A stretch of DNA of 64,000 nt from Phyllosticta citribraziliensis (Eukaryota). Below, piece after piece: positions 2,585 through 64,000 of this stretch; within the stretch, counting starts at the first letter, position 1; every line of letters starts with the position of its first letter. A program made the position numbers and the translations under genes. The notes beneath the pieces were generated by a model. It worked only from the letters and a program-made list of their open reading frames with translations. It ran no database searches and was not told where the DNA came from. The stretch covers positions 62,001 to 126,000 of the forward strand of contig NW_027117338.1 in assembly GCF_038025025.1 (NCBI RefSeq), in the 5' to 3' direction.

Positions 2585-4174
2585 ATGGTTTCCAAAGTCG
2601 ACGTTGAAGAGACGGCGCGCGCAGCGTCTCCCACCACCGCGGAGCAGGAGGTGGACGAGGAGCAGCAGCCATGCGACGTCGCCTCCGAACAGTCGATTCA
2701 GGCCAACAAGTGGCATCGAGCAGCGTACACGGGCGCTCTCGTCTTCAACCTCGCTTCGTTCATACTCCCGGCTCTATACAGCACGCTGTCCAAGCTCTGG
2801 GTCGCCAACATCGACTCCTCCCTCGTCGTGACCACCGACGCCTACACGTACATCGGCGTCGTGGCCGAAGTGCTCAACGAAGGCCTCCCGCGCGCCGCAT
2901 GGGTGATAATCGGAGACAAAGCGTCACGGCCGCTGGCCCAACGGCTCCAACTAACACACACGCTCATCGCCTTCCAGGCGGTCCTGGGGCTAGCAATGAG
3001 CCTCGCCTTCGTGGGCGGCGCAAAGGCCTTCGCGCGCGGCTTCGTGCCCGCCGACGTGCGCGCGCTGAGCATCACGTACGTGCGCATCGGGGCCTTCAGC
3101 GCCTTCAGCAGCGCCGTCGAGACGGCCGTGGCGGCGGCCACGCGCGCCCTCGACCGCCCGGACGTCCCGCTGCTCATCAGCTCGGTCAAGTTCGCCGTCA
3201 ACATCGTGCTGGACCTGCTGCTCATCTCAAAGGTGCACGTCGGCGCGCACCGGCCGTCCGTCAATCTGCAGACTGGCATCCAGCTGGCGTGCAATCTGGC
3301 GTCGGCGGCCGCTGGACTGGCGTATTTTCTGTGGAGGAACACGCTCAAGTTCCGGAAGACGCGGAGGAGAACGACGACAACGAGCTTTGAGCAGGCAGGA
3401 GATGACACTCCGCCATCGACGCGGCCCAGCGCGCAAGCCCTCGCGATCCTCCTCCGCCCGGGCATCCTGACGTTCATCGAGTCGGCCATCCGCAACGCGC
3501 TGTACCTGTGGCTGGTGCACACGATCGTGTCCATGGGCTCGACGTACGCGACAGCGTGGGGCGTCTTCAACACGATCCGCTGGGGGCTCGTCATGGTGCC
3601 GGTGCAAGCGCTGGAGCAGACATCGCTCGCCTTCGTCGGGCACGCCTGGGGGTCCTGGCGCCGCAGCATCGGCGTGACGACGCGGCGGCCGGGCAAAGGG
3701 CGCTGCACGCCGTCCACGCTGCTCGCCATCACACGGCCAGCCCTCGTGTCGCTGGGGCTCGCCCTCGCCGTCGAAGTCCCGCTCTGCATCTTCCTCTCGA
3801 CGCACGGCGCGGCGCCCTTCGCGCGCTACCTCAGCGGGTCGTCCGCCGTCGCGGCCGTCACGGCGCGCATGTGGCGCACGATCGACTGGTGCTACGTCTT
3901 CTACGCGGCGTCGACGATGCTGGTCACGGTGCTGCTCGCCACGCGCCCGCGCTGGTACCTCTACCAGAGTCTGGCCAGCAACCTGCTGTACGTGCTGCCG
4001 TGGGCCGTCGTCTGCCAGGCCGCGCACCTCGACGCCGACGTCGCCTGGACGTACCACCGGCTGGTATTTGGCGGCAGCCTCGTCTTCAGCTTCGTCGACG
4101 TCCTCGTCGTCGATGCGCTGTGGGCTTGGGCGCTGCTCAATGGGAAGATGCGCCTGGATGTGTTTAGGGGGTGA
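2585..4174 (+). CDS. MATE-like (MOP superfamily) multi-pass membrane protein, intronless
   Basis: 529-aa ORF from ATG 2585 (cgccATGg) with many hydrophobic segments in two halves and strong GC3 codon bias. Segments such as [28 protein letters not shown] resemble MATE transporters. Confidence 0.7.
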
Positions 4175-5843
4175 CTTAAACGGACAGATGGATGGATCGG
4201 TGTTCGCGGAGTTCCGGGTGCGATTTTTTGGCATTTGTAGAGACGGAAAAGTTGCTCTGGGTATCCTCGTTTGGAATCCAGCGCGTAGATGGTTGGCAGA
4301 TGCCCTTTCGTCAAATTGTCGGAGAAGGAAAGGTCCAAAATGTAGTACCAAATCCAACTCATCTGCAACAGTCAGCTCATATCCGTCGAAGTAAATTTGG
4401 GATCCATGTCAAGTGGGGAGCACACGTCAACCTGTGAGGGCGACCAAGAGCACTCGGCAGCTCTAACCTGTAGAAACCACAACAACTTATGCCACGACCC
4501 CTATGAGCGCGCCCTAATACATTGTAGCAGCAGCAGCAGCAGGAGGAGGGTATTAGTAAGATGTGAAAAGTAAGCTGAGCACCAACAGGGCTAATCACGT
4601 CAACACTAAAGTGTGGTTCGTTTATGTTCAAATTTGTTGGGACTCAGGATTAGAAGTGAGAAAAGAAGGGGAAAAGCCGCTGCCCGTCAAAAAAGGAGTA
4701 AGAGAAGAATAGAAGAGACCCCAAACAAACATTGAATCATGACTAACACATTCCGAAGGCTGGGGGGGAGGATGGGGGAGAGGAAGAATAAGAGAGAGAG
4801 AGAGAGAGACAGATGGCAGAGAACGAACACAACGTCCTTGGAAGTAAAGGAGGAGGAGGAGGAGGAGGAGGAGGACAGTGATAACAAGGCAAGAGTAGTC
4901 AAGGGATAGAAAATCCAGTCAACGCCAACCAAGGACACGGTTCCACTCGCTGCCATTCTGGCTTCCAACCATGGCCGCACACATGAATTGAAAAAACGCC
5001 AGGAAATGGGAGTACATCTCCCCTTTTCAAATTAAAACATGAATAAGAGCAGCCGTGTGACTATTGACCTGATCAGTAGCGGCCAATGTGGAAAGGGGAA
5101 TATCCCATGGTACAAAAAAGTGTCTATAAGGAACTCCAAGGGAAAGGGAATGGTCCTCCCGTATGCGACTTGTGCAACTGCAGATGGGGTCTTTGAAAGG
5201 AATCCCCTCAAGTCTTGACTGTCTCGGACATGGATATTTAAGACCGTTGAGAATGTTTGGCAAGACATGCCGCTGTGGGTCTTGCAACCAGTAGTGACGG
5301 GATTATGTAGAGGAATGCCAGTCGATGATAAGGACAGGGCGGCATTCCGTGTCTGGTTCCGTGCAGATGCCAGCCGTGGCTGGCCTGATATGAGTGTCGA
5401 AGTATCATGTATGCTGGAACCAAGTGGAAAAGCAGAGGCAAGAGCATGGGTGGTGGTGAGAATACCTCTTCGGAGAAGATGCACGGGTCGACGCAAACGC
5501 AGGAGCGAACCGAGGGGAGGCGGTAAGGTCTTTATCGAAAGTCGCAGCTTGTCCAACAGTGTGCCCCGGTAGATCATGCCGGGTATTTTGCAAGCGTGAG
5601 ACCCATGGGACTGAAGAGAGCCCCGGATATCTCTTCCTGCGGGGGCGCTGTGACTGTCTGGACCGTTGGGACTGGAAACCTGGACAAGGCCGCTGAGGGA
5701 GCAGAGCCAAAAGGTAGAGTTGGTACAGTACAACGTGCTGTTTCCGCCGGTGGTGTCGGGTACCAAAGAGGTCGAATATGGATGGCGGACATGAACCTCG
5801 ACGCAATGATGGACGCGGCGAGCCACGGCTTCGAAAGGCGTCT

Positions 5844-7370
5844 TCAAGTCTCACCCAGAGCCTGACGCAGCATTTGGTTGCCAACTACCAGGTTCTCCAG
5901 AAATTTGGCTGCCTCGATGAGCATGGCGCTCTTGCTGAACCCACCCGCCTTGAGTCCCGGGACAAGCTCGTTGAGCGCGCCGAAGCCAACCTTGATGGCG
6001 TTGCGACGCTTTTGCTCGCTCAAGATGTGGTTACTACGCTTCTGCTCCTCGCTCAAGTTTTCGCGCCGTTCCTTCTGTGAAACCTTGCCCTTCTTCACAG
6101 GGCTCTCGGCTCCTGAGTCCCTCAACCTCTTAGCATTGCGGGGGCCGACGCTGAAAGAGGCGGCACGCTGACCGCCTGCACTGGTGGGTGTAGAGGAGCC
6201 GAGACGAGCGGTCGGAATGAGACCGTTCTCGGCAAGAGTGCGACGACGCTTGATGGGCCCACCGCCTGGACTTGCATTTTCAGAGGTTGAATCACCTCCG
6301 TCAGACACTGGGGCGCCTGGGTCGATAGGCATGAGGTCCACGAGCATGCGCTTGCGATTGGTAGGCTGTTTGACGTGATTAGCATCGTGGTAGCTCAAAG
6401 GTGCGCGTTTTTGAAGCGTAGGACTCGGCGGCTGCGTGTTGGGCTGGGTGCTCGGACCACTGCCCGCGGGCTGCAACACCTGCATGTCGCTCACCAGCCT
6501 ACGTACAATGGCGTCTTCCGTCTGCGTCGTCTTGGAATCCGGGCGGAAGCCGTTGTTGTTGAAGTTGGTGTCGGAACCGAATTGCGGAGGAGGGCGGGGG
6601 CGGACAGGCACGGATGTCGTGCCGTAGTAGGGATGGCTTTGGGAGGGTGCGACACTGCGGCCCATGGTGAAGAAGTTGAGGACGGTCGTCGGTGCGCCGT
6701 CATCCGCAGACGTGGCAGGAGCATTCGTGTGGTGGTGGTCGGCCGTCGAGGTAAAGGGTGCAGATGCCGGAGGGCTCGGCAGGCTGGCGCCTGGCATCGA
6801 GGTAGGATGAGGTTTGCTGAGAAAGGTCATGTCATGGGGTTGTGAGCTCGACATGAGAGCCGTAGCAGCGCCAATGACTTCGTCGGACGCGCGGGTTTGC
6901 ATGCTGCCATTGCGCGGCTGCATGTAGTGATTCACGGGGTGGTGATCGATATGGCCAAACATGGCTGCGTTGTGGGAGGGTTCTGTGACGGTGCCATGAA
7001 AGGTCGGCGCCGAGTCCATGAAGTTGAAACCACCAAAAGAGTCTGTAGGATGATGATTTGAAGGTCCAAAGTCATGATCTGAAAAGGTAAAGTTGTTGGA
7101 GCCCTGGTTGAAGGGACCTTGGTCAAAAAAGTCCTGGAGCTGACCGAACTGGAGGTCATTCAGCAAGCCCGGGCCTGGCGCTTGGACATTTTCAGCAGCG
7201 GCAGCATAGTCGACGTCGCCTGGAAAATTGCCCATCATCTTGTACGCTGTCTCGTCCAGGACCTTGGGGTCGGTGTAGTGGTACCCGTAGATGTTTTCAT
7301 CCTTGCCGGGCACCTGGTTGGAGCTCATTCCGAAATGACTAGCCGGCGGCTGGTTCACGAGCGCCAACAT
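5844..7370 (-). CDS. bHLH transcription factor, Ino2/Yas2-like (start at 7370 or 7328)
   Basis: C-terminal bHLH RRENLSEEQKRSNHILSEQKRRNAIKVGFGALNELVPGLKAGGFSKSAMLIEAAKFLENL after a long low-complexity activation region. Confidence 0.85.
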   Translation of the reverse strand: MLALVNQPPASHFGMSSNQVPGKDENIYGYHYTDPKVLDETAYKMMGNFPGDVDYAAAAENVQAPGPGLLNDLQFGQLQDFFDQGPFNQGSNNFTFSDHDFGPSNHHPTDSFGGFNFMDSAPTFHGTVTEPSHNAAMFGHIDHHPVNHYMQPRNGSMQTRASDEVIGAATALMSSSQPHDMTFLSKPHPTSMPGASLPSPPASAPFTSTADHHHTNAPATSADDGAPTTVLNFFTMGRSVAPSQSHPYYGTTSVPVRPRPPPQFGSDTNFNNNGFRPDSKTTQTEDAIVRRLVSDMQVLQPAGSGPSTQPNTQPPSPTLQKRAPLSYHDANHVKQPTNRKRMLVDLMPIDPGAPVSDGGDSTSENASPGGGPIKRRRTLAENGLIPTARLGSSTPTSAGGQRAASFSVGPRNAKRLRDSGAESPVKKGKVSQKERRENLSEEQKRSNHILSEQKRRNAIKVGFGALNELVPGLKAGGFSKSAMLIEAAKFLENLVVGNQMLRQALGET

Positions 7371-46047: not shown

Positions 46048-49000
46048 CTACTCCCACTCCCTCCACTCACGCCTGCACTTGTCCATCTCCTCCTTCAGCC
46101 GCTCGACCAACTCGCGGTCCCGGCCGCTCGCAGACGGCTTGCCCCCCGCACCCGCCTCCATGTCGTCGAGGTACTTCCTGAGCCGGCGGTGCCGCGCGCC
46201 AATGTCGCGCTCCGCGGCCCGCCGCTCGCGCACGCGCCGCAGAAAGGGGCCCAGGTCGTCGTCGCGGCACGCGCGCGTCCACGCCCGCCGCATGCGCGCG
46301 CTGTACAGCTGGCACGAGCGGCCCTCGTCCGGAGAGGAAGTGCCGTCGGAAGTGATGCCGCCGTCGGCAGTAGAAGGGTCGCCGCTCCCGACGACGCCCA
46401 GCTCCTGAGCGCCGTCGACGTACTGCAGGGCGCCCGTCACCATGCCGGCGACCTTGGACCCGGCGCGCGCCAGCGGCCACACGGCCTCGTCGTAGCACTC
46501 CTCGCACACGGTGAAGTCGGGCACGCCCGGGATGACGTGCCATAGGGCGCCGAGCAGGGGCGCGTCGCGCTGGCACTCGGTCTTCCACGCGTTGTCCTGG
46601 GCCAGGTCGGCAAAGGGGGCGAGGTCCGGTACACCGCCTCGACGCTTCGACGCCGACGCCTGCACGTCGAGCAGCGCGTCCAGGTACTTGGGGAAGCGGC
46701 GCGACGAGGTGCGCAGGGAGCAGAGGAACTTTGTCGGTGCGGGCGAGGTGGGGGGTTCGCGCTGAAAGGCGCCGCGCAGCGCGGGCATGAGGGCGTCGAC
46801 GCAGCGCACGCAGTGCTGGCACACGTGCAGGTTGGCGATGAAGCCGTCGTTGTACTTGTTGGGCAGACTGTACCAGGTCCGGTGCGCGCGGTGCTTGTCC
46901 GGGCACTCCTTCTCCTCGCCGTCGACGCCCGCCAGCGCCCGCAGCAGCCCCAAGTCCTCGCGCTTCTCCTGCAGCGTGAGCAGCCACGCGATGCGGAACC
47001 ACGGGTTGCCGAGCGCGCACTTCTTGGGATATTCCGGCTCCATGTCGTGCACGCGCTTGAACTCGCGACGGAACGACGTCCGTCGAACTACGTTGTCAAC
47101 GCACTCTGGGCAAAAGTCGAGCGTCAGCGCGCCATCCAGCGTGTACCAGTCGTTGTACTTGGTCGTGTACTCTGGCCGCGGGCAGGCTGGAAGCGGACCG
47201 CTCGGAAACTCCAACTCGGCAGCCTCTTGGCTCTTCTTTTCCCTAGCGAGACCCGACGTCGACCGCCGCGTCGCGTCCGTATCCGAGTATGTGCGTCGAA
47301 TGGCGGGTTTGCGCGCATAGTCAAACTCCTCGTGCAGTCGGCTTGGAATGGGCGTAATGGGCGTGGCCGGCAGCCGCGCGTAATCTGGGAAACTTCTGCT
47401 GGTGGGAGTCTGGGGGCTGTTAGGGAAGAATTGGAAATGCTCTTCCGAGGGCATCAGCTGTTGTGCGTCGTTGTCTGGATAAGGCAACGACGCGACAGCG
47501 GCAGCGGCTGCAGCTGCTGCTACTGCCGGGAGCCTTGCAGAAAGCGGCTGCATGTCTGCCCGCCCAGGCGCGTCTCTCGGATATGGCATCGGCTCGTCGC
47601 GTGGACCCGAATCGCTTCGGCCATGTCGAGACGATGGCCGTGACCGCTCGGGGGGAGGGTTTACCAAGGGGAAAGACGTTGTTCGTTCTAAGCGGTTGCT
47701 CGAAAATTCCACCGGGGACTCGACGCGCGGGGTCCGGGGTTCGAGGTCGAACGACGCGGACAGGGGAGATCCTCCGCGTGATGCATTGCGGGACCCTTGC
47801 TTGGGACCTGGGATGGAGCGGGGATCAACTCTTGGCCGCACTGAATCGTCCTTGGGCCTCAGCATCGGTGACCGCGGCGGGGATGGCGGCAAGTCGTGGT
47901 CTCGAGAGAGCGGTGACGCAGGTCTTGAAGAAGGTCTCGATGCGGTGCCTCTTTGGGTGCTTCCGTACAACGTCTCGCAAGTGCTGCGCCTCAAGGGCAA
48001 GGGCCGGCTCCACGGAAGGTCTCCCGTCAGCATTGCAGATGACTGAGGAGTCAGACCTGCAGAGGAGCCTAAGCTGGAAGGGCTGAATGGAGTCGACCTT
48101 GGCGGCGTGTCGGGTCGCGAGGAGGTCGGTATTGTGGTTCGCACTGAGAGACGTTCTCTGGGGTCGACATCGCGTGATGAGGTGGTATTAAAGTCTTGTC
48201 TGTTTGATTCCACAGGTTTGTAGGAGTAGGGTGTCGATGTTCGCTCCTTTAGGGTTGGCAGGTCTTCTTTCGCGTCTCTGTTGAAAGAGTATGGCGCTGG
48301 TATCCTTTCCTTGTCCAGAGCCTTGGAGTCTTTAGGCGACGAGCTCAACTGGTCTTTGCTAAACGAGTACCTCGTGGTACGCCGCCGCGATCGCATCCGA
48401 GGCACCTCATCCTCATCCAAGTCTGAATCCTCAGAAATGGCACCACCGCTTCGCCCGAGCTTGCGCATGTCAGCCGGTGCTTGTAATGGCGCCTTCTTTC
48501 TCCTCGAGGCGGACTGTCTGGCGTCGGGTGACAAGTAGGCATCGCTGTCGGATCGCACCCTGACCAAGTCCGGCTTGGAGTAGGCATAGGGGGATGGGGG
48601 CCGTCTTGGAGGCTCAATGGGTTTCTTCTTCCTCTCCGTCTGCAGGGGTAGCTTTTTCGAGATATGTGCATCGTCACACGCAGCGTCTTTACGAATGGGA
48701 ACGCCATCCGAGCGCCCGTCTGCATCACCTGCCGCTCCTGGCACGATCACGAAGCGGCGTTCCGGATTGATTTCCTCTTCGACCTCGAGTAGCACCGGTT
48801 CCTGGTCGATAGATCCACGATTAACTGCTTCTTCACCGGCATGCTCGTCCAGCGAGGAATGGTCGTGCTCTTTTGCCCGGGCCTCATTCAAATCCTCGAC
48901 CGTCGGAAAGGGAGGCCATGTCGCCTGCCGTCGATGCCCCGCAGGATATGACACGGACCGGGATAGTGAAGGCTGGTTGCCGTGGCGAGAGGAAGAGTAG

Positions 49001-49185
49001 GAGTAGTCGTCCAGCCGGCGGCGCGAGTACTTCATGTCGGCTGGAGGGAGGGAGTCGTAATTAATGTCGCGGCGGTCCTCGTAGCGAGGCTGGTATGCAT
49101 CGTAGTCGCGCGACCGTGAGGTGTTTGGTTCGTAGCGGCGACCGGGTTGGAGGTGCGAGTTGTCGTGGTAGTGATGGTAGGCCAT
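46048..49185 (-). CDS. 1045-aa protein: Ser/Arg/Pro-rich disordered N-terminus plus a C-terminal Cys-rich domain with repeated W[YH]..CxxC units
   Basis: Long intronless ORF with strong GC3 bias in the C-terminal third. Motifs DWYTL..DFCPECV, TWYSL..HVCQHCV and LWHVI..FTVCEECY. Confidence 0.88.
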   Translation of the reverse strand: MAYHHYHDNSHLQPGRRYEPNTSRSRDYDAYQPRYEDRRDINYDSLPPADMKYSRRRLDDYSYSSSRHGNQPSLSRSVSYPAGHRRQATWPPFPTVEDLNEARAKEHDHSSLDEHAGEEAVNRGSIDQEPVLLEVEEEINPERRFVIVPGAAGDADGRSDGVPIRKDAACDDAHISKKLPLQTERKKKPIEPPRRPPSPYAYSKPDLVRVRSDSDAYLSPDARQSASRRKKAPLQAPADMRKLGRSGGAISEDSDLDEDEVPRMRSRRRTTRYSFSKDQLSSSPKDSKALDKERIPAPYSFNRDAKEDLPTLKERTSTPYSYKPVESNRQDFNTTSSRDVDPRERLSVRTTIPTSSRPDTPPRSTPFSPSSLGSSAGLTPQSSAMLTGDLPWSRPLPLRRSTCETLYGSTQRGTASRPSSRPASPLSRDHDLPPSPPRSPMLRPKDDSVRPRVDPRSIPGPKQGSRNASRGGSPLSASFDLEPRTPRVESPVEFSSNRLERTTSFPLVNPPPERSRPSSRHGRSDSGPRDEPMPYPRDAPGRADMQPLSARLPAVAAAAAAAAVASLPYPDNDAQQLMPSEEHFQFFPNSPQTPTSRSFPDYARLPATPITPIPSRLHEEFDYARKPAIRRTYSDTDATRRSTSGLAREKKSQEAAELEFPSGPLPACPRPEYTTKYNDWYTLDGALTLDFCPECVDNVVRRTSFRREFKRVHDMEPEYPKKCALGNPWFRIAWLLTLQEKREDLGLLRALAGVDGEEKECPDKHRAHRTWYSLPNKYNDGFIANLHVCQHCVRCVDALMPALRGAFQREPPTSPAPTKFLCSLRTSSRRFPKYLDALLDVQASASKRRGGVPDLAPFADLAQDNAWKTECQRDAPLLGALWHVIPGVPDFTVCEECYDEAVWPLARAGSKVAGMVTGALQYVDGAQELGVVGSGDPSTADGGITSDGTSSPDEGRSCQLYSARMRRAWTRACRDDDLGPFLRRVRERRAAERDIGARHRRLRKYLDDMEAGAGGKPSASGRDRELVERLKEEMDKCRREWREWE

Positions 49186-50077
49186 GGGGGTGGAGTAGAG
49201 GAAGCATAGACGTAGGTGAGGGCAAGAGGTGGGAGAGGGAGAGTATTAATCGCAAGGCCAGGCGGCGATGGTCACGCAAGTCGGTGCATGCGTGTGGTGT
49301 GGTGTGGTGTGTGGTGGGGTACCAGGCAATGTATGTAGGCTGACGGAAGCGCATGTATGTCCCATGAGAGCGCATGCAAGTACCGCTCCGCTGCGCCCCA
49401 GGCCTTGGTTGCCCTCACCACCGCACCACAACGACTCGTTCCCGTCTGCGAGCCGCAAAAAGGGGGATATGCCAATGGCGCGCCTGGCTCGTCGCCACTG
49501 TTGCGCAATTGCACCTCTGCCAGCCTCGCGCGCATTCGAGCGATGCGTCTCACGCGCCATGCTCACGACAGCCCCAGAGCCGCACGTCCGCCTCGTCCTG
49601 GTCCTGGTCGCTGCTGTGGCAGTTTGCAAAACGGGCACACCGGTGCCACGTTCGCCTGCATCTCGACTGTGCGAGCGATGGGGCAAAGGTTGTGTGAGTT
49701 TGGGGTGCAGCCCGTATACCTACCTACCTACTTGGACAATGGTGGTGTCATGCGTGCCGTTGCAAAATCACTCCAATCACAGCGTGTTTCCCAGTTGGGC
49801 GTTTTGGCTCTCTGCATCGGCCTCTAGACATTTCCAGGTTGATCCCGATGCCTTGCAGACAGCCTGGCCGGCCGGCTGCATGGCTGCCGACTGCCTCCTC
49901 TCCAACCACGACAAGGGTACCTCACTGTCTCGGCGGTGCGGGCCTCGAAGCTTTTTTATGCTCAGAATGACCCGACCCAAGGCAAGGAAATGTTTGCCAT
50001 GAAACCGCAGCGACCTACTGAACCTACGACGTCCCGACCTGACGTGGCGGCTGACACGCAAAAGAGAAGTGGCTCAT

Positions 50078-51361
50078 TTACCAAGGATGGGGCTGCTCGC
50101 CGTCAGCATGCGCGGCTGCAGGACATGAGTCCCGTGGCGGCATTTGCCTACATACCTGGTTCTCCCAGGTCCAAAAGGTGCCGCTGTGCTGGATGCCTTT
50201 GCTTTGTATCACGTCGATCATGCCAGCGACCGACACTTCTGGGCTGATTTGCCCTTGGATCGCCCACGGAAGTTGAATGTTTGACATGTCTCTGCTGACT
50301 TTTTAGCCACTCCTTTGGAGCGAACAGGCAGACTTACGTCGCGACCTCTCCGGGATGCAGGGCCAGAATGATGGTGTCGTCGTCCTTTCTCTTGAGCTCC
50401 GCAGCCATGTGCTAAGCAAGCAAACAATCAGTACCGTGCCATGCCTGTGCTTCGGCATCACTTACCCGAAGCATCTGGTTCAAGGCGGCCTTGGACGCGG
50501 CATACGCAGCGAAACCGTCTTCCATCTCCCGAAAGTTGATGGCGGAACCCGAGTCGCTGCTCATGAAGGCTATGGAGCCAATGGGAATGTTGGTCTGGAG
50601 CAGCTTCTGCGCCGTTATGATGGGCCCTAGCCCATGTCAACCTTTATTCAGGGATTCCCAGGGGTCAGCAGAGTGCCCACCGATGGTGTTGGTGTGTAGG
50701 TGAAAGGCAAACTCGTCAAAGGATCTGCAGCGCAGTCATTAGCATAAGGTTGGCGAGACTCGGTCCTCACATGGTACAAAGAGGCGGCAAAAGGAATGGC
50801 AAATTGGGAATGGCTGCCTTGACTTTAAGCAGTGCAACCATCACTGCTTCCTGCGGCTTTCTTGTCCACACCCACGCGAACAAGACGGCTGAGGATCCAG
50901 ACGAAGCGCACCGGCAGTTGCCAAGGAGGTTTTGGGCGGAGAAGGGTCACCAACAGTTCGGTTGCCCTCTGGTCACATCAGCCTGAATTCTCGAAAGGAC
51001 GGCAAAAGTCCTCACATTGGGATATCTCAAGACGCCGGCGTTGATGACGACGTAGTCTATCTTGAGATTGGGTATCTGGACGAGTTGATGCACAAAGTTC
51101 TGCGTCGTCATCAACTGACCGGTCTTGACGACCAATCTGGGAGGATGCAGGCCGTACTACGATGCTGGCCTCTGAGAGAATATCGCAAACAAACATCTGA
51201 CAGCGGCCGTGGTCGTTGCCTGAGTGGCCCCAGAGCGCAGAGGCATGCTCTGCCCAGGGCTGGCGGACCGTGGCGATGATTTTCTCGCCCCGCGCGAGCA
51301 GCTGGCGGACAAACTCGAGGCCAATGCCTCTGCTGGCGCCGATGATGACCCAGGTGGTCAT
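50078..51361 (-). CDS. Classical short-chain dehydrogenase/reductase, CsgA/C-factor-like, multi-intron
   Basis: TWVIIGASRGIGLEFVRQLL, YVVINAGVLRY, FMSSDSGS, AYAASKAALNQM (YxxxK), LALHPGEV, GTFWTWEN..PW. Confidence 0.9.
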
Positions 51362-52256
51362 GTCTTGGTCGGAGTACAGGGCGTCTGGGATTAGGTTCAT
51401 TTTTTCAACGAGAGCATTGTAGAATGGGGGTGGAGAAGAAGGAGAAGCGACGGTCTGACTCGCGCGACAGACTGGACCCTAACGGCAGGCCGACAGAAGG
51501 GTTGAATATGGTGTAAAGCAGCGGTGCGGGCCGTTTTGAGGGACAGACTACTTGGGAAAAGGGCGTGGGGCGGACGGCGATGTTGGGAGAGGGGGAGCGG
51601 GACGGTGGCAGGGCTGGACATGGGCGCCACGCCGCACGCGATACGGTGGCATTTGCGGCAAACAAGGTTTGTCTCGAACGGGCTTGATTTGAAAGACGAC
51701 ACCAGATGAAGCGTGTTTGAAGTGTGTGCTGATGAAACTGGTTTGTTTTTGAGTAGAGCGAGCCAAGGAGGGGAGGCCGTGGTTGTCGGCAAAGAACGGC
51801 AGTTTGGTCGAGGCGATTCAGCAAGGGAACCAGCGCATCATCAGTGTGAATCGCGTGGCGGAAGTGACGAAATTGATCGTAGAGGCGTCGACCTGATGGA
51901 CTTCGTAGCCGGCACTGAGATCCGAGGGATTCTCCCACTTTCAGAGGGCTGTGGCTGTGCGAGGCTCGGAATGCAAACAGTGAGGACAGCCACACGGCCA
52001 ACAAGTCAGATGGACTGTGATACAGATAGATACAGCGTGCAGCGTCCGAGGTGAGGTGCCGAGCAGTGAAGTGAAGCGAAGGAATGAGATGCCGAGAAAG
52101 ATCGAGAATAATCAATGAGCCCAGGGCTGCACTGGTCGGCGATGAGATAGATGATGACGACACGACAGCGGGAAAAACTGCGAGCAATCACCGCCGCCCG
52201 AGCCACCCCGGAGCGCCACACTCCGCTATTCCGGGCGCGCCCGACTGCCCCTTAGA

Positions 52257-55388: not shown

Positions 55389-56211
55389 CTACGCCGCCGC
55401 CGCCCCCTCACCACCTCCCCCACCGCCACCCCCGCCCATCGACCGCCTGCCCTTCTTCCCTGCGCCCTTGCCCGCCGGGCTGTTATTCCCACTGCCACTC
55501 CCGCTGCCACTGCCACTCGCGCTCCTGCGGCCCCTCCGCGCACTCCCACTCCCACTTCCACCAGCAGCACCTTGCGCACCCGCACCCGCACTCGCGACAG
55601 CCTGCGCCCTCACGCGCGCCGCCTCCAGCACATCCGCCGTCCCGCAGCCCGGCCGTCTCCTCTCGACGCGCTCGCCGCCCAAGGGCACCATGTCCGGCTC
55701 TCCCCCACCTGCATGCTGTTGTAGCCCTTGTTCCACGACGGTGCTATTCGCGCCGCCGCCGCGCTGCTTGTTGTTCTCGCCAAACAGGAAGCGCACGCGG
55801 ACGCCGGGCGTGCCGGCCGGCGGCGGGCCGCCCGACGGGTCGTCGTCCCACTCGGGCTCGCTGTCGTCGCTGGCGAAGCCGGCGAGTTGGTTTTCGAAGT
55901 GCAGGCGGGTTTGCGGTATGGACTGCGAGGATGCGCGGGGGGCGCGCGAGATGGTCAGCTTGGTCGGCATGGGGGGGGGCCCATTGGGGACAGTGGGAAG
56001 AGAAAGGAAGGCGGAGAGATACCTCGTTGCGCACCGTACTCCACCAGATCAGCATCTCGTTGGACTCGAGCACGCGCGCGGCGTTGTAGCGCCGCTGCCG
56101 CTCCTCGTACGTTTCGCTCAGCGGCTCGTTTGTTGCGCTGACGGCAGCGGCGGCGGCGGTGGGCGTCTTCGTTTTCGTCTTGGTGGTCGGGGGAGCCGCT
56201 CGGGTCGCCAT
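55389..56211 (-). CDS. Small conserved hypothetical protein, one intron (~55926-56022), Gly-rich tail
   Basis: GAG|GTATCT..TCGCAG splice joins EERQRRYNAARVLESNEMLIWWSTVRNE to SIPQTRLHFENQLAG, a motif I recognise from Pezizomycotina hypothetical proteins. Confidence 0.7.
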
Positions 56212-57311
56212 GCTGCTGCTGCTGCTGCGTGCGGCTGGCGTCCGTTGGCCTGTCTGTTTGTCTATGTGTGCGCTGGCAAGGAAGGGTGGGCGCGCGGAGG
56301 AGGGTCGGTCGGTGGGCAAGGTATGTAGGTCGTCGAGGGTCGAGCGAGCGAGCGAGGGAGGAGGGACGGAAACGAGGATGGCCGATTTAAAGGGCGAGAC
56401 GACTGGAGGCGGAGAGAGACGTGTCGCAAGGGATGCAGCAAGCAGTCAATCCAGTCGAGGGAGGCTGAGAGACAGGTCGGTAAGGTGGTCGGTAAGGTGT
56501 TAGGCAGGTGGGCGAGCGCGAAAAACGGCAAGTAAGCTGATGCGGGGTGGGTGGTGGGCGTGAGTGGTGCCACTAGTGGGGCAAGAAGCAGAGGGCGAGA
56601 AAAATTTCTTGGTTGCGCGCGCGCGGCTATTCAAAACAGCTCTGGATATAGAAACGCGCAGGAGATCGAGGACGAGTGGAGAGTGGTGAGGGCGAAATGA
56701 TGGCGCTGGAGGTAGTGCTGCGCGCACTTGGGGGTTGCGAGAAGGATTGCCTCTTGTGGTAAGCGGGCGGATGGGGCCTTGAACCGCACGGGGCACTTCA
56801 CCATGTGCCCCCAAGGAATATTTATAGGCAAACTCAGCTTCATTATCAGATCAAGAATTCTAGGAAGTGATGTAGGAGAAGAATCATATTGATGTCTCGT
56901 CTTCCCATCCACTCAAGGTCTCAAGCCAATCGCAGAATGTGAGAGTGCTGTTTCGGAACAGTACTGCCTCCAACCGAATGCAGTCTTTAGTGGAACAAAT
57001 TCCGACGTTTCTACCATCTTCGTGTTCGGTCATCCCACTCTTCGGCCTTTCATCCACAAGGGGGCGAGCAAGCGAGGTCAAGAATAGTGCTCACTCAATC
57101 TCCGCCAGCATTGTGATGGACCTCCAATCACTATCTAACCGTCAGTCGTTATATTTCTATCAGTCTAGCGACAAGATACAAGTCAATCTGAAAGATGTTC
57201 ATGACGTGCCCAGAGACAAGCAAGCAGCGAGAAATGGCAACTGTATTTTCAAAATCTATGCCCACCCAAAATCCATCTGTCCAGGGTATATGCATCACTC
57301 ATGAGTCCAGT

Positions 57312-58408
57312 CTACGGCAGGTTGTCCAGAGGGTCGTAGTCTCCGGTCGGGTGGGGCTTGTCGGGGAAGTGTAGGTTGACGCCAAAGCCGGGGTACACGA
57401 AGCGCGTCAGACCCTTGTTCTTGTGAATGTCCTCGAGCGCCGCCAGCTCCTCGGCGTCGAGAGGGATGATGTTCTTGTTCTCGTCTATCCGCGAGGGGTT
57501 GACGGACTTGGCGAGAACGGAGCTGCCACGTGCCACTGCTCACTGTCAGACAATGAAAGGTGGGGAAGGAGATGAGACGTACCGTGGTAGCTGAGCAATA
57601 CGGTGCCGGCCGTGACCTTGTGCTTCTGGGCGACTTCGTTGACGGCCTCCTCCTTGAACATGGGGCTGCCCGTGCTGCCAAAGGGGCTGTAGGCGGTGAT
57701 GTGGATGCCCTTGGACTTGCAAAAGTCGACGATTTCTTGCTGCGGGAGGTAGGGGTGGTTCTCAATCTTGCGGGAGGTCAGATGTTTGCATCCACGTGTC
57801 TGGCAGAGCGCTTACTTGATTGGCGGCGGGGACGACTTCGACTCTTTTCAGCAGAGCCTCGAGGTAGGGAACGCTAAAGTTGGAAACGCCAATGGCCTTG
57901 ACCTTGCCAGTGGAGAGGAGCTTCTCCAGCTGCTTGTACGTGTCGACGAAATTCCACGACTTGTCGAGGTCACGGGAGCCGTCGGGGTGCTTGGGGAACA
58001 TGGGGTCGTTTCCTGTCGGCAATTAGATTGTGCATGGTGGCAATTGGTCGTTTGCTTACCATTGGGGTTCATGGGAACGGGCCAGTGCATGAGGTAGAGG
58101 TCGACATAGTCGAGACCCAGCTTCTTCAAGCTCAGGTCGAGGTTCTCCTCGACGCGCGAGTGATAGGTACACCACAGCTTGGTGGTAACGTGAATGTCTT
58201 CGCGCTTGACGCCCGAGGCGAAACCCTCCTTGAGACCCTCGCCGACCTCTTCCTCGTTGCCGTAGACGTAGGCGCAGTCAATGTGCTTGTAGCCCGTCTT
58301 GAGGGCGTGAGCGACGGCCGTCTTGACCTGGCCAGGCTCCGACTGCCAGGTGCCCAGGCCCAATGCGGGGATGGTGGCGCCGGTGTTGAGGGGCAGAGGG
58401 GTGTTCAT
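57312..58408 (-). CDS. NADPH aldo-keto reductase, GAR1-type hexuronate (D-galacturonate/D-glucuronate) reductase-like, 3 introns
   Basis: AKR tetrad in [10 protein letters not shown] / TTKLW / LMHWP. Segments [46 protein letters not shown] and [13 protein letters not shown] closely follow Trichoderma GAR1 as I recall it. Confidence 0.9.
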
Positions 58409-59629
58409 GGTGGGCTTGGGGTTGATGATGCTGGAGGGGGTAGCTTTGAGGATGAATTTGCAGAGTTGGGGATTCATGACAGGAGAAGAGGGGAATGGCG
58501 TGCTTTCAAGAGACGACCCCCAGGAACAGGAACCCCACCTTGTCCTCACGGCACGCAATCGCACCAAAGGCCGATGACGCCACGGACGCTGATGGGTGGA
58601 GCGTGCTCAAGCTGCAGTGCCGTCCACCAGTCGTCTCCAGCTTCGCTTCGCTTCGGCCAACGACCCCAGACGGGAGCGATGAAATGCCTTGTGGCCTGAG
58701 GCCGAAACAACCTGAACCTAACCTCACTTCTGCATTCACGTGCCTTGTGCGACGACGACCCGACGACACCTGATGTCAGCCTGCAGCTTCATCAACACCA
58801 CATCCCAATCCATCGTCATCCATCCTCAGAAAAAAACCGCTGCCCGTGGCGATCGCAACCTGGTTTCCACAAGCGGGTAGCTCTCAACTAGCGCTCCCGC
58901 ACCCAAGCCGTAGGGCAGATTGAGCCGCAGCCCAAGACAAGACCCGGTGCCTTCGGACAAAGATTGCCATCAAGAGACCGCCCTAATGTAACCATGATTC
59001 CAACAATCCCGTCGTCCTCTTCCGGCTTATGAGACTGTCAGATACTGCGAGCTCCAGCCTCGACAGCCCGCATCCGACTGTCCGTCGCACTTGATCGGCG
59101 GATCTCATCCTCCACGCTACCGAAAAGTGGTTTCCGAGCCTCGCCTCCCTGTTGACATCAGTACATTGCCCAATGGAGGCCGTGTGTAACCTGATGCTCA
59201 GGCGAACCGGCCAGTCTGCGCTCGCCCATTTCCTCTGGAATCCGTAATGCCGGTCCGACTTTGTGGGGTTGGCTGGAGGCTGTCGACCGTCGTTGCGCAG
59301 GGCCGCTGCGGAGTGCATGTGCTGGGGAACTTAGTTTCCAGACCCCTTCTGCATCATGGATTCCGGGGCTTTGCCTTTGTCTCATTCGCTTGGCCTCGTA
59401 AACTTGCCTCTTTGGGTCCTCATCCAGCAAGTCCAACACTGCGGAATTTGCTGGCCAGCGCTGTTCGACGACTTGGTATTTAAACCTTCTTGCCACCATT
59501 CGGTCTTCATCCCATACCAACCCAAGCGCCAGCACCAAACCCACGTCAACCTTTTGCAAGTCATCCTTTGTCATTTAGAGTTTCAGAGATACCCAACTTC
59601 GCATATTCCACCACTGTTCGACCTCCACC

Positions 59630-60666
59630 ATGGCCCCCATCGCCATCGACCAGATCAACAACGGCCAGACCTTTGAGAAGCCGGTCTTCAACAAGGCTCG
59701 CGACGGCCACGCGCTCGAGTCGCTCTCGGACGACATTGACTCGGTCAACGTCCTCAAGGACAAGATCAAGGCCGGCAAGGCCTCGCAGGAGGAAAAGGAC
59801 ATTTACGAAAAGTCGCAGTTCGACGCCCAAAAGGACAAGACGCAATTCCGCCAGTATGAGTCGGCCTGCGACCGCGTCAAGAACTTTTACCGCGAGCAGC
59901 ACGAGAAGCAGACGGTCGCCTACAATCTCAAGGCGCGCAACGACTTTAACAGCAAGACGCGCGCCGAGATGACCATCTGGCAAGCCATGGAGAAGCTCAA
60001 CACCCTCATCGACGAGTCGGACCCGGACACCTCGCTGTCCCAGATTGAGCACCTGCTGCAGTCGGCCGAGGCCATTCGCCGCGACGGCAAGCCGCGCTGG
60101 ATGCAGCTGACGGGCCTGATCCACGACCTGGGCAAGCTGCTCTTCTTCTTCGACGCGCAGGGCCAGTGGGACGTCGTCGGCGACACGTTCCCGGTGGGCT
60201 GCGCGTTCGACGAGCACATCATCTACCCGGACACGTTCAAGGGCAACCCGGACCACGACAACGAAATCTACAGCACAAAGCACGGCATCTACACTCCCGG
60301 CTGCGGCCTCGACAACGTCATGCTGAGCTGGGGCCACGACGAGTACCTGTACCACATTGCCAAGGAGCAGAGCACGCTGCCCGACGAGGCGCTCGCCATG
60401 ATCCGCTACCACAGCTTCTACCCCTGGCACAAGGAGGGCGCGTACGACTGGATGATGAACGAGAAGGACAAGAAGATGCTCGAGGCTGTGCGGGCCTTCA
60501 ACCCTTACGACCTGTACAGCAAGAGCGACGGCATCCCCAAGGTCGAGGACCTCAAGGTACGTTGCGCCAACACTTTCAAAGAGAACATGCAGCTAACAAC
60601 TCTCTTCAGGACTACTACCTCGAGCTCATCGACGAGTACTTCCCCAACAAGGTCATCAAGTGGTAG
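59630..60666 (+). CDS. MIOX: myo-Inositol oxygenase; intron 60557-60609
   Basis: DESDPDT..QIEHLLQSAEAIR, GLIHDLGK, VVGDTFPVGC, SWGHDEYLY, IRYHSFYPWH, FNPYDLYSK (di-iron HD-fold MIOX motifs). Confidence 0.97.
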
Positions 60667-62769
60667 CGGATGAAGCTGCAAGAATTTTGTCGTCGGGCGC
60701 AGTTGTTCCATCCCATGTCGTAATGTCTTTCATTTTGCTCAGTCGGTTTATTTTTCCCACATTAGATGACGATGCACCAAATTCCCCTGGGTGCATCATA
60801 GCGGCTACAAAGTATGAGGTAGCATAGACCAATGATGATTCGCAAGAGCGTCTGGACACCGGCTCTTGTCATTGGCTTCGTCTCTGGACAGTTCTTTCGA
60901 AGTGATTGCGCTGAATACAGCTGTGCCGTACTTACAGCCTCCTCCACCGCCACCTTCTCTGCAGGTGTTTGTTTGCTTGTCCGTTGATGCGACGTCGTCG
61001 GCGCCCAAGACCAGACCACAACGCAGACTGGGCCGCACCGCCCTCTCAACCCGCTCAATCCAGTCAGACACGTCAGACACGATTGCAACCCAACCTCCCT
61101 CGCTGTTCAGTCTTGAGTGCACCACACAGGCTCAAGCACCTGATTTCCCCGCACCCACGCGTCCCAGACCCAGCGGCAAAGCAGAGCAAAGTAGACAGAA
61201 AGACGGCCGACCAACCATCGCAGCCTACTTCTCATCGGCGCTTTACGCTTCGCTCGCTCGCTCGCTCGCTCGCTCTAACCCGCCGACCAAACGCACGCGA
61301 AACACAGCGAAGAGAGACCAGTCGACAAACGAGGTCGAAATCGGAACAAAGAATGGCGGAAACGTGGTCCCGCTTCCCTTCCTGTCCCCTTCCTTCCCTT
61401 CCCTTGTTGCTTTGCTGCGCTCGCTACTCACTTACTATCTGCCGCGTACTTACCAACGCATCTTCCGGGTGTCTTCGTGGTTGGCTACTTGCGTGCCTAC
61501 TCATGGCGCTGTAGTACTTATGCCTCCCTCCCTCCCTCCCTCCCTCCCTCTGTCCCTCTTAGCGTCCCCTTCTTCGTTATAATGTCTGTCTTGAGCGAGC
61601 GCGAGGGAACCATCTCCGCGCGCCTGACCGCGCCGTTTTTGCTGTTTTGAGAATACGGAGGAGAGGAGGACGTACGTTGTTAGCGGAGAGAGAGCGTGTA
61701 CGATTGACGTGTCGGCTGGTGGACGAGTATCTGTAGCGAGTGCACTGCTGCTTTTACTGACTTGATGCACACACACTCTCGCTCTCTCTCCTATCCATCT
61801 CTATACCTCCTGCTTTACTAACCTCCGCGACCGAGCCTTCTCCCTCCTCCCCTTACACGCGCAACCGCTCTCGCGCTCAAGACAACCTTTCTAGCCCTGT
61901 CAGACGGCAGCGCGGCAGCGCGGCAGTACGGTCCACCAAAAGAGAAGAAAAAGCGGCAATAATTGCCTCGTTTGCTCCTGCTCGGCTGAGCGGCAACGCG
62001 GGCGCGCGGCAGAGCGGTGAGCGAGGAAAAGGCCCGGCGGCGCGTCGCGTTGCGATTTGCGGCTCTTTTTGCCTTGTTTGGATGTATGGTGGAAAGAAGT
62101 GTGGGTGGGAAGTAGTGGCGTAGCGTAGGCAGGGTTGGGTTCGCGGATGGGGGGTTGGTTAATCTTGTTGTTGTGGTATGAAAGGTTGGGATGTAGATGG
62201 GTGAAGGAACAAAGGAATGGTAGTAGAAGATGGCGAAAACAACAAGAAGTAAGTCGAATAGAAAGGTAATGGAAGCAAGATCTCCTCTATATATATGTTA
62301 CATTAAATACAGCACTTAGAGGTTCTATTGTCAGCAAGAGTCGGCCTCCTACTAGTATCACCGTCACCATCACCATCACTATTAGCAGCGATAACCACTC
62401 GCTTCCCCTCTCTTCTAAGTAGACAGATAAGTCGTGAAACGCTACAACAACAAGATACATACCTACTAAACTACGCACCTTCCTTCCCTCTGTCCCTCCA
62501 CCATAACCGCCGCCGCCGCCGCCGCCGCCGCCGTACACAAGCAATCACCACATACGGACGTCCCCAGGCAATGATGCACACACCTTCCCTCCGCAGACCC
62601 AAAACAGCAACTCCACACACCCGCCACTTGCGACGTTCGACGCTGTGTGCTGCAGCTAATCAGCGCGCAGCGTGAGCACCTTATGCCGCTTAAACAATTA
62701 GTGATAAAAAAGGAATGACGAGTACAGGTGAAAAGGTCCGCTCAGCCGCTGGTGCGGACACGGATGCGG

Positions 62770-62808
62770 GTAAGAGTAAGAGTAAGAGTACGGATAAGAG
62801 TACGGATA
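62770..62808 (+). repeat. (GTAAGA)n / GTACGGATA microsatellite
   Basis: Directly visible. Confidence 0.8.
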
Positions 62809-63534
62809 CGCTGGTTTGTTGGTTGGTTGGTTGCTGGTAGGGCTGGACGGCCGAGCGAATGGGGTAGGTATGGCGCGAGATGGGATGGGCAGCTTGTCCC
62901 GACAGAGCACATGTATGTAGCTAAGCATCATAACCCGAGAGAAAGAAGGACCGCAAACGGCAAAGAGTCGCGAGTGAGTGAGCAAAGCATGGCCAAAAGA
63001 GAGATTTTGGCGCGCGCTGAGCTGAGTTGGGTTGAGGCAGTTCAGCCCGCCCGTCTGGTCGCCGTCGAGAGTGGTCTGGTGAATGGAGTAGGTATGTATG
63101 CTGGTACTGTAGGTAGAATGAGTGCAAGGCAAGTTTACCCCGCGTGCCCGCGCGCTTGATTGGGTGGGTGGCTGGCTGGACGGAAGAGATGTTCCATCAC
63201 CGGTACGGCACGGTATCTTCGTGTAGAAAGCGGAACGCGAGGAGGAATGAGGCGACATGTGAGAGCGTGTCGCGGACGTGATAAAGCGACTGGCCGAGAG
63301 CCGCGGACCGCTGGTGGGTGGTAAGAAGAAGGTTGTGGAGGCGGATGCAGCCGCAGCGCCGTGTGGAGAAGTGTGGGCAGTGGATGGATGGATGGATGGC
63401 TGGACATCAAGGTGTTTGTTTTGGAAAGAAAAGCGGACGGGTGTCTGGATTTGGGTATTCGTATGATGTGCCCAACACTACAGTAGCTTCAATGAAGCTG
63501 CGTTCACGTCTCCCCCAACACCCCCTGACACCCC

Positions 63535-64000
63535 CTACCTGCCCATCCACCCCCCGTCGACCGTCACCACCTCTCCACTGACGTACCCGGCGCCCCGCCC
63601 GGCCAGCCAGACGACAACGCCCTTAAAGTCCTCGGCACTGCCCCATCTCCCCGCCGGAATGCGCGCCAAAATGCTGTCCGCACGCGCCTTGTCGTTGATG
63701 AGCGCCGTGTTCATCTCCGTGGCAATGTAGCCCGGGGCAATGGCGTTGACGTTGACGCCCTTGCCCGCCCACTCGTTGCTCAGCGCCTTGGTGAGCTGCG
63801 CGACGCCGCCCTTGCTCGCCGCGTACGCCGGCACCGTGATGCCGCCCTGGAACGACAGCAGCGAGGCGACGTTGATGACGGCGCCGCGCCGCCCGGATGC
63901 CGCGTGCCCGACTGACGCTGGGATGCGCTCGGCCGGCCGCGACAGCATGTGCGCGCCCACGTCGCGCGCCAGCGCAAACACCGTGTGCAGATTCACCTGC
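63535..64000 (-). CDS. 3' part of a KduD/IdnO-like SDR (2-keto-3-deoxygluconate or 5-keto-gluconate oxidoreductase family); 5' end lies outside the window
   Basis: [53 protein letters not shown]...RIPAGRWG...VDGGWMGR is the KduD-type signature. Confidence 0.9.

Follow-up and report, generated by a model that had tools for sequence, protein, structure and literature searches.

Do the genes at the right end of this stretch of Phyllosticta citribraziliensis DNA encode steps of a single pathway, one that leads from inositol through D-glucuronate to D-gluconate? The stretch, referred to below as the window, is 64,000 nucleotides long (RefSeq assembly GCF_038025025.1, contig NW_027117338.1, positions 62,001 to 126,000 of the forward strand), and from position 57312 onward it carries the genes for a GAR1-type aldo-keto reductase (AKR) and a myo-inositol oxygenase (MIOX), followed by part of a gene for a short-chain dehydrogenase/reductase (SDR). 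In Aspergillus niger, D-glucuronate is converted through L-gulonate, 2-keto-L-gulonate, L-idonate and then 5-keto-D-gluconate to D-gluconate; the first step is carried out by GaaA and another, still unidentified reductase, the second step has no gene, and the later steps are assigned to GluC/GluD, the alcohol dehydrogenase GluE, and GluF (PMC5814732, PMC5306355, PMC4870679), the last being a 265-aa SDR (PMC5814732). The second step was still hypothetical in 2026 (PMC13158570). A reading made from the letters of the window (the sequence-only reading below) had proposed that the three neighbours belong together and tie inositol cleavage to this idonate route. The explanation that we find best, and consider probable, is that the three genes belong to a conserved fungal cluster for the use of inositol, one that feeds the idonate/gluconate route. 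Gene structures, transcription, splicing, protein families and conserved linkage are observations, to which we add substrates, co-regulation and orthology to GAR1 and GluF as what we infer.

Three transcribed genes at the right end of the window

Genes were located by a stop-to-stop scan for open reading frames (ORFs) over 54-64 kb with the standard code, followed by reading of the DNA. The features are as follows, in window coordinates.

57312..58477, minus strand: GAR1-type AKR gene, 340 aa (splice model, transcript contigs, Pfam matches of exons 1-3)
58477-58060, 58012-57816, 57766-57583 and 57535-57312 (stop included), minus strand: AKR exons, separated by GT..AG introns of 47, 49 and 47 nt
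58478..58763, no strand: promoter core shared by the divergent AKR and MIOX genes, with some 290 bp separating two transcript-contig ends
58737..58742, no strand: CACGTG (E-box), candidate shared cis-element, conserved in position
58764..59629, plus strand: long 5' untranslated region of MIOX, with an intron at 58988-59041 and a weak second one at about 59475-59531
59630..60666, plus strand: MIOX gene, 327 aa (Pfam, transcript contigs)
59630-60556 and 60610-60666 (stop included), plus strand: MIOX exons, separated by an intron of 53 nt
60667..63534, no strand: MIOX-SDR spacer, without a conserved ORF and with low-depth transcription in part
63535..64000, minus strand: KduD / gluconate-5-dehydrogenase-like SDR, C-terminal 154 aa, a GluF/KgrA-type candidate whose gene continues past the window edge

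The AKR and MIOX genes stand head-to-head across about 1.2 kb, as the sequence-only reading had described, their ATG codons being 1221 bp apart with the short AKR start at 58408 or 1152 bp apart with the upstream start at 58477. The same reading had put the end of the SDR 2.9 kb past MIOX, and the stops of MIOX (60666) and of the SDR (63535; codon 63535-63537 on the minus strand) are 2868 nt apart, in agreement with this; the two genes are tail-to-tail. Transcript contigs of four public runs were placed on 56500-64000. Those of runs X1 and X2 have no mismatches to the window and skip the three AKR introns and the MIOX intron exactly, with GT..AG ends; the MIOX coding intron is skipped in run X9 too, and the SDR is covered by X2 (record 10). 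Because mismatch-free contigs skip exactly the predicted introns, the two runs contain spliced RNA from this fungus and the gene models are correct. The AKR, MIOX and SDR genes are thus real, spliced and transcribed, all three in the same runs and with all four coding introns confirmed by contigs. The runs give neither conditions nor levels, and contig depths were not used for ranking expression.

The Pfam MIOX profile (PF05153) matches exon 1 of the MIOX gene over profile positions 1-232 of 249 (E 2.4e-120, 401.2 bits against a cut-off of 25), and exon 2 supplies the last 18 residues. Relatives share 77-96% identity, and H141, H165, D166, H236, H261 and D294, which we take to be the di-iron ligands known from the mouse and human structures, are invariant in all 20 aligned sequences.

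Exons 1-3 of the AKR gene match Aldo_ket_red (PF00248) with E-values of 1.1e-22, 5.3e-07 and 1.7e-05 (80.9, 29.4 and 24.5 bits) and together span profile positions 2-237 of 291; exon 4 by itself gave no Pfam match. The spliced protein has an LMHWP motif, presumably part of the catalytic Asp-Tyr-Lys-His tetrad of AKRs, and exon 1 is 97% identical to a Phyllosticta cluster representative. The nearest solved structures include mouse and human AKR1A (E 8e-37 and 3.2e-35), and the neighbours in the PDB are aldose and aldehyde reductases of broad specificity. A 23-aa N-terminal extension of the form MNPxLxxF[IM]LK..TP.SI..P (58409-58477, minus strand) is kept in 17 of the 25 AKR-MIOX intergenic regions compared (those of 24 locus groups introduced in the next section, plus the window), and upstream of it lie stop codons or unconserved sequence. 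Since this peptide is conserved and the Phyllosticta AKR models in GenBank have 340 aa, we set the AKR start at 58477, not at 58408. The extension, which could be a targeting or regulatory peptide, is absent from loci having only an IolG-like gene, AKR and MIOX.

The 154-aa SDR fragment is matched by adh_short_C2 (E 2.3e-28, 99.8 bits) and adh_short (76.7 bits), and the classical-SDR Ser...Tyr-x-x-x-Lys motif is found in its stretch ...VASLLSF...PAYAASKGG...; the cofactor-binding N-terminus lies beyond the window. The fragment is 99% identical to a 293-aa Phyllosticta citriasiana protein. With Phyllosticta proteins as the best named matches both of this fragment and of AKR exon 1, the sequence itself points to Phyllosticta or a very close relative (Botryosphaeriales, Dothideomycetes). 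For the full-length Phyllosticta SDR (P0241), the KduD model TIGR01832 is the best match at 290.1 bits, below its cut-off of 338.85, and the SDR orthologue of locus L029 also stays below that cut-off with 305.9 bits. P0241 reaches 206.7 bits against the gluconate 5-dehydrogenase model NF006070 (cut-off 279) and 187-190 bits against two other gluconate 5-dehydrogenase models (cut-offs 369-408). The nearest PDB entries are KduD 4z9y (2.8e-60) and then gluconate 5-dehydrogenase 1vl8. Filing the SDR as KduD was dropped, since the protein falls below the curated equivalog cut-off despite this being its best-matching model. The labels "GAR1-like" for the AKR and "KduD/IdnO-like" for the SDR, which the sequence-only reading had used, are fair at the level of families. 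The sole Neurospora crassa protein among the 120 SDR matches listed is P0337 (66% identity), whose cluster members have 265-281 aa; A. niger GluF (EHA27001.1) has 265 aa.

The MIOX-SDR spacer contains no ORF family in common with other loci. In Phyllosticta the AKR and the SDR are two GenBank numbers apart, so only MIOX fits between them. No transcript contig covers 61018-61770, which is an absence of cover only. Low-depth contigs elsewhere in the spacer, X2 record 9 (62179-63512) and X1 record 4 (62439-62846), may stem from a non-coding RNA or from a long 3' end of the SDR.

Between the two divergent genes, the AKR contig of X1 extends to 58476, the MIOX contig of X2 (record 8) begins at about 58764, and the bin 58508-58758 has no transcript cover in any of the four runs. 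On account of these contig ends, which are not the same as mapped transcription starts, and of the uncovered bin, AKR and MIOX appear to diverge from a core of about 290 bp. The MIOX 5' leader, of about 870 nt, is unusually long. X1 and X2 each have one contig that shows its intron at 58988-59041 (GT..AG, 58987 joined to 59042), and record 8 of X2 continues from the leader into the MIOX coding region; a possible second leader intron at about 59475-59531 is found in X1 only, at depth 6. CACGTG occurs as a single copy in 14 of the 25 intergenic regions, 300-504 nt from the short AKR ATG, and nowhere else in these 14 regions. When only the interval of 250-450 nt is counted, 11 of the 25 regions contain it, whereas 500 shuffles gave 1.2 on average and never more than 5; several of the loci are related, so that not every copy counts as independent. 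In the window it falls within the core that lacks transcript cover, a short way upstream of where the MIOX contig begins. We regard CACGTG as a lead for a shared promoter element and as a candidate site for a bHLH-type factor. Two other promoter k-mers, GCCCCGCC and CATCAATCA, were set aside; they recur mostly within one group of related loci and are absent from the window.

On its other side, the X1 AKR contig (2787 nt) extends about 950 nt to the left past 56500. This left part, at approximately 55547-57311, is G+C-rich and of low complexity, its long ORFs have no Pfam match, and it is either a very long 3' untranslated region or an overlapping unannotated transcript. Farther left, a scan of 12 long ORFs in the 39-57 kb flank revealed no further pathway gene. 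A 1065-aa open frame without a Pfam match (46048-49245, minus strand) and a weak adh_short match to the N-terminal piece of another SDR gene (50978-51478, minus strand, E 2.3e-05) sit 6-11 kb left of the AKR.

Linkage of the genes in other fungi

Starting from the alignment of 20 MIOX proteins, we retrieved 80 metagenome loci, including flanks of at most 10 kb to the left and right; these formed 64 groups at a MIOX nucleotide identity of at least 97%, and the AKR, MIOX and SDR of the window were searched against these groups by tblastn. An AKR orthologue (57-75% identity) that diverges from MIOX within 2.5 kb was found in 24 of the 35 groups with at least 2 kb of upstream sequence, and three more of these groups (L010, L035 and L060) have it elsewhere in the locus. 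Where just 0.8-2 kb are available upstream, the AKR start is visible in 9 of 12 groups. The SDR orthologue lies within 10 kb of MIOX in 22 of the 64 groups, with 60-84% identity to the full-length query and 68-79% to the 154-aa fragment of the window. It takes at least four arrangements relative to MIOX: past the AKR 3' end, 6-8 kb upstream, downstream on the plus strand or, like the window's own copy, directly downstream on the minus strand; because its place and orientation vary, the linkage has survived rearrangement. We also scanned 120 of the 130 long flanking ORFs (at least 170 aa), a scan in which intron-rich genes could be missed and L013:8468-15529 was left out. The outer flanks vary by locus and include PRP8, TOR kinase, Dicer, leucyl-tRNA synthetase and others. 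Since these flanking housekeeping genes differ between loci, the linkage is not mere regional synteny, and the AKR-MIOX arrangement is more than chance.

Recurrent neighbours were identified by all-against-all ORF clustering together with Pfam and NCBIfam scans. A Zn-dependent alcohol dehydrogenase (Zn-ADH), which is not in the window, occurs in 22 groups; its best model is L-idonate 5-dehydrogenase (IdnD) at 202.8 bits, below the cut-off of 469, and it stands head-to-head with the SDR within 1.5 kb in all 19 testable groups. Linkage beyond local synteny was thus found for AKR-MIOX (24/35) and for SDR-Zn-ADH (19/19), with five families recurring in several gene orders and orientations. A GFO/IDH/MocA oxidoreductase, likewise not in the window, is present in 18 of the 64 groups, with inositol 2-dehydrogenase (IolG) as its best model at 247 bits, below the cut-off of 355. 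This IolG-like gene stays with MIOX and AKR even where the Zn-ADH/SDR pair is absent, and seven groups hold only the IolG-like gene, AKR and MIOX.

Because the SDR is paired with a Zn-ADH in 19 of 19 relatives, an IdnD-like Zn-ADH is likely to lie beyond 64000 in this genome, and an IolG-like oxidoreductase may possibly lie there as well. The sequence-only reading had expected an idonate dehydrogenase, a 2-keto-gulonate reductase and a Zn2Cys6 regulator in that direction. The relatives make the first of these likely and lend no support to the other two: the 2-Hacid_dh domain was found in none of the 120 flanking ORFs, and no conserved Zn2Cys6 regulator appeared among them, one Zn_clus piece and one Fungal_trans piece being confined to a single locus each. 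The same 120 ORFs held no conserved transporter (one MFS_1, at a single locus), no GluC/GluD-type gene was present in the loci studied, and no conserved dehydratase was present across the 64 locus groups.

In named genomes, judged by GenBank locus tags or accession numbers, the genes are placed as follows.

Lineolata rhizophorae: SDR, MIOX and AKR consecutive (KAF2460278/279/280)
Several Phyllosticta species: AKR numbered n and SDR n+2
Diplodia intermedia, Sphaceloma murrayae, Extremus antarcticus, Lepidopterella palustris and Bogoriella megaspora: AKR adjoining MIOX
Bathelium mastoideum, two assemblies: AKR and MIOX four genes apart
Polychaeton citri: MIOX and SDR four numbers apart
Elasticomyces elasticus: MIOX and SDR three numbers apart

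With the linkage conserved, through rearrangement, in other loci and in these genomes, the proposal that the three neighbours belong together is upheld. Some GenBank models merge the SDR with the Zn-ADH (487 aa in Aspergillus thermomutatus, 674 aa in Tolypocladium and 664 aa in Pyricularia); the merged SDR models, proteins P0297, P0312, P0352 and P0303, are probably joined neighbours and not true fusions, and the SDR/Zn-ADH ones indicate adjacency in further lineages.

Several loci show local peculiarities. L072 has two tandem IolG-like genes (3436-4578 and 5614-6381), and at L007:17142-19025 a second Zn-ADH and a second SDR follow a few kb past the cluster; these copies suggest local duplication of cluster members. 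An ORF family of 635-682 aa, c24, lies between AKR and other members in 7 groups. In one lineage c24 and a CENP-S gene are inserted between AKR and the Zn-ADH/SDR/IolG-like block; c24 loci are L029, L032, L035, L036 and L004 (for example L036:4875-6920, minus strand). We rejected c24 as a pathway regulator or enzyme, given that it has no Pfam match and that its neighbours in the ESM Atlas are Ascomycota proteins described as hypothetical or extracellular. The PRP8 gene at L019:4134-7253 has a Hom_end_hint domain (E 4e-10) and probably holds a PRP8 intein.

The proposed pathway and its rivals

In the pathway that we favour, MIOX would cleave myo-inositol, giving D-glucuronate, and the AKR, diverging from a compact shared promoter and co-expressed with MIOX, would reduce this aldehyde product at once to L-gulonate with NADPH, like GAR1 of Trichoderma reesei and animal AKR1A1. 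L-Gulonate would then be converted through 2-keto-L-gulonate to L-idonate by enzymes encoded outside the cluster, whereupon the Zn-ADH and the SDR would invert C5 of the L-aldonate through a 5-keto intermediate. Their most likely route would be from L-idonate through 5-keto-D-gluconate to D-gluconate, as assigned to GluE (IddA) and GluF (KgrA) of A. niger, and the carbon would enter central metabolism as gluconate. The IolG-like fifth member, present in many relatives, would probably be an inositol dehydrogenase through which other inositols reach MIOX, a role that fits the induction of both MIOX and iolG by D-pinitol in Leptographium procerum.

The tie to the A. niger route that the sequence-only reading had drawn finds support in Supplementary Table S2 of PMC13158570, which lists NCU01906, TrC1350W and A. 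niger NRRL3_06930 as GAR1 orthologues, NCU01905 and TrC1351C as GluE/IddA orthologues, and NCU01904 and TrC1352W as GluF/KgrA orthologues. In T. reesei and N. crassa this trio occupies consecutive loci and belongs to the same AKR, Zn-ADH and SDR families as the genes beside MIOX here, so that the MIOX-linked AKR adjoins the same Zn-ADH/SDR pair as GAR1 does by locus numbers. Because the tabulated trio matches the one found beside MIOX, the pathway reading is in part supported. The strand suffixes of TrC1351C and TrC1352W also fit the head-to-head Zn-ADH/SDR pair of the 19 loci. As for the first step, D-glucuronate is also reduced by Gar1 and GaaA, and an additional A. niger reductase must exist (PMC4870679).

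A number of observations weigh against this pathway or against its generality. No AKR orthologue is found in 8 of the 35 groups with sufficient upstream sequence, one of them, L047, having an AKR with just 40% identity; of the 16 groups flanked by 5 kb or more to the left and to the right, just 8 carry the SDR. AKR and MIOX are unlinked in Rhizodiscina lignyota, as are MIOX and SDR in Glonium stellatum and AKR and SDR in a Mollisiaceae species. Adjacency in named genomes is seen in Dothideomycetes only. In N. crassa, MIOX (NCU08856) lies apart from NCU01904-06 (PMC6468284), whereas here it is the divergent partner of the AKR. The idonate route is incomplete as encoded, because the cluster has no gene for turning L-gulonate through 2-keto-L-gulonate into L-idonate. 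In A. niger neither D-glucuronate nor D-galacturonate induces the gar1 homologue (FPKM 89, 59, 130 and 134; PMC4870679 Table 1), which is not controlled by GaaR/GaaX either (PMC5488244). Of the 120 nearest relatives listed for the AKR, six are named "D-galacturonate reductase", ten bear GAR1-derived misnomers and seven are named "glycerol 2-dehydrogenase", and it is from position and literature that the AKR is taken as a putative orthologue of GAR1 rather than of the GldB/GLD2 glycerol dehydrogenases. Position and literature likewise suggest that the SDR is orthologous to GluF, with P0337 presumably being NCU01904; the SDR stays under every NCBIfam cut-off, its KduD score being above its gluconate 5-dehydrogenase score. 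Finally, in Aspergillus affinis a 630-aa model contains the SDR together with a DgoD-like dehydratase of the enolase superfamily, a neighbour that hints at another context for the SDR in Aspergillus.

The gap in the encoded route bears most directly on an alternative in which the same cluster works without the idonate steps: the Zn-ADH would oxidise L-gulonate at C5 to D-fructuronate, and the SDR would reduce this to D-mannonate. A bacterial L-gulonate route via D-fructuronate to D-mannonate has reportedly been found in Chromohalobacter. If the pair acted directly on L-gulonate, the absence of 2-keto-L-gulonate-forming and -reducing enzymes from the cluster (2-Hacid_dh in 0 of 120 flanking ORFs) would be explained, and with C5 inverted on the AKR product itself, the encoded steps would follow one another without a gap. 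The SDR also stands closer to KduD and hexuronate-type SDRs than to gluconate 5-dehydrogenase, and a dehydratase such as that in the Aspergillus model would take D-mannonate onward. We nevertheless hold this alternative to be rather unlikely; the table in PMC13158570 treats NCU01905/04 and TrC1351C/52W as GluE/GluF orthologues, the best bacterial model of the Zn-ADH is L-idonate 5-dehydrogenase, and the 64 locus groups have no conserved dehydratase. The AKR could instead be a general glycerol/aldehyde reductase of the GCY/GldB type with no dedicated part in reducing glucuronate, its only tie to MIOX being the common promoter region, as might be the case in a stress or osmolyte pair. The seven relatives named "glycerol 2-dehydrogenase (NADP+)", which include the MIOX-adjacent Sphaceloma protein, the broad-specificity reductases among its PDB neighbours and the uninduced gar1 homologue of A. 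niger (PMC4870679) would agree with such an enzyme. However, AKR and MIOX stand head-to-head in 24 of 35 groups despite changing flanks, the AKR is found beside the GluE/GluF-type pair even without MIOX, as the N. crassa and T. reesei locus numbers indicate, and both GAR1 and AKR1A1 do reduce D-glucuronate (PMC4870679, PMC12337341), so that a general reductase appears very unlikely.

The SDR, for its part, might be an unrelated neighbour, a KduD-like enzyme of 2-keto-3-deoxy-sugar-acid metabolism, to which we give only a slight chance. A 2.9-kb spacer lies between it and MIOX, and their tail-to-tail orientation leaves no common promoter; KduD is its best family model; and it is missing from half of the well-flanked groups and unlinked in Glonium and the Mollisiaceae species. 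Against an accidental neighbour stand the 22 of 64 MIOX groups that carry an SDR orthologue within 10 kb, in four or more arrangements, the consecutive AKR, MIOX and SDR numbers of Lineolata and the distance of two between AKR and SDR in several Phyllosticta species. A wider reading joins these elements: many Pezizomycotina would carry a mobile five-gene inositol module (IolG-like, MIOX, GAR1-type, GluE-type and GluF-type genes), inositols, both endogenous and from plants, rather than plant glucuronoxylan would be the main physiological substrate of the "fungal D-glucuronate pathway", and the IolG-like enzyme would be the missing oxidiser of L-gulonate, or of its lactone, towards 2-keto-L-gulonate. 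Taken as a whole, this is speculative and in our estimate quite unlikely.

We therefore return to the conserved inositol-utilisation cluster feeding the idonate/gluconate route as the preferred explanation. The enzymes, which belong to well-known families, and the pathway are already known; what appears to be new is the physical tie of MIOX, and of the IolG-like gene, to this pathway and the nomination of the GAR1-type AKR as a glucuronate reductase. The A. niger route was worked out from growth on the free acid, and its first reductase is only partly known. The tie to MIOX would give the fungal D-glucuronate pathway a physiological input in inositol, of which plants contain plenty in the form of free inositol, pinitol and phytate, and the conserved linkage suggests that these fungi use inositol through a known sugar-acid pathway. 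The cluster nominates the GAR1-type AKR as a candidate for the second, so far unassigned glucuronate reductase. One step of the fungal route is still without a gene (PMC13158570), and the co-located candidates, including the IolG-like enzyme, provide a compact set for finding it.

The analysis leads to a correction of public annotation as well. Among the 120 closest relatives listed for the AKR, ten (P0004, P0006, P0038, P0062, P0066, P0092, P0105, P0111, P0112 and P0114) are named "H/ACA snoRNP pseudouridylase subunit" in GenBank, and the MIOX-adjacent AKR of Extremus (KAK3056374.1) carries this misnomer. It looks as if a pipeline had mapped the symbol GAR1, for galacturonate reductase, onto yeast Gar1.

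Comparison with known systems

The trio of T. reesei and N. crassa is the nearest counterpart, although PMC13158570 lists its members by pathway step and not as a cluster, and here the Zn-ADH is not inside the window. The literature searched, whose scope left out subscription journals and closed supplements, contained no description of MIOX clustered with these genes or of the trio as a cluster. Within it, NCU01904-06 occur together only in PMC13158570, NCU01904 has no mention in a main text, and A. niger NRRL3_06931 and NRRL3_06932, which were checked for a MIOX beside the gar1 homologue, are not mentioned. In A. niger the proposed chemistry from D-glucuronate to D-gluconate is the same, and gluD and gluE share a bidirectional promoter of 455 bp (PMC5306355). 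GluE is paired there with GluD, however, and not with GluF, and the accessible parts of the A. niger papers describe no link to MIOX or inositol.

The animal pathway (MIOX, AKR1A1, CRYL1, C11orf54 and DCXR) resembles the cluster in that MIOX is followed by an aldehyde-reductase AKR that yields L-gulonate (PMC12337341). Its set of CRYL1, decarboxylase and DCXR is typically absent in fungi, and the accessible text of that source does not describe the animal genes as clustered (PMC12337341). Unlike in the animal pathway, the neighbours here are IdnD-like and KduD-like, which points to the idonate/gluconate branch. The GntII genes idnD and idnO of Escherichia coli likewise encode a Zn-ADH and an SDR that invert C5 of L-idonate via 5-keto-D-gluconate, but the fungal proteins fall well under the equivalog cut-offs (202.8 against 469 and 207 against 279), and the fungal SDR is nearer to KduD. 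GluF itself is less than 35% similar to the E. coli enzyme (PMC5814732).

A further counterpart for the inositol side is L. procerum, in which D-pinitol induces MIOX, iolG and the inositol transporter gene iolT1, and in which MIOX is required for growth on myo- and D-chiro-inositol (PMC9788770). The accessible text of that study mentions neither downstream glucuronate enzymes nor clustering, and the loci compared here have no conserved transporter. The two systems are alike in that a fungal MIOX works with an IolG-like dehydrogenase in L. procerum, and an IolG-like gene accompanies MIOX in 18 of our 64 groups.

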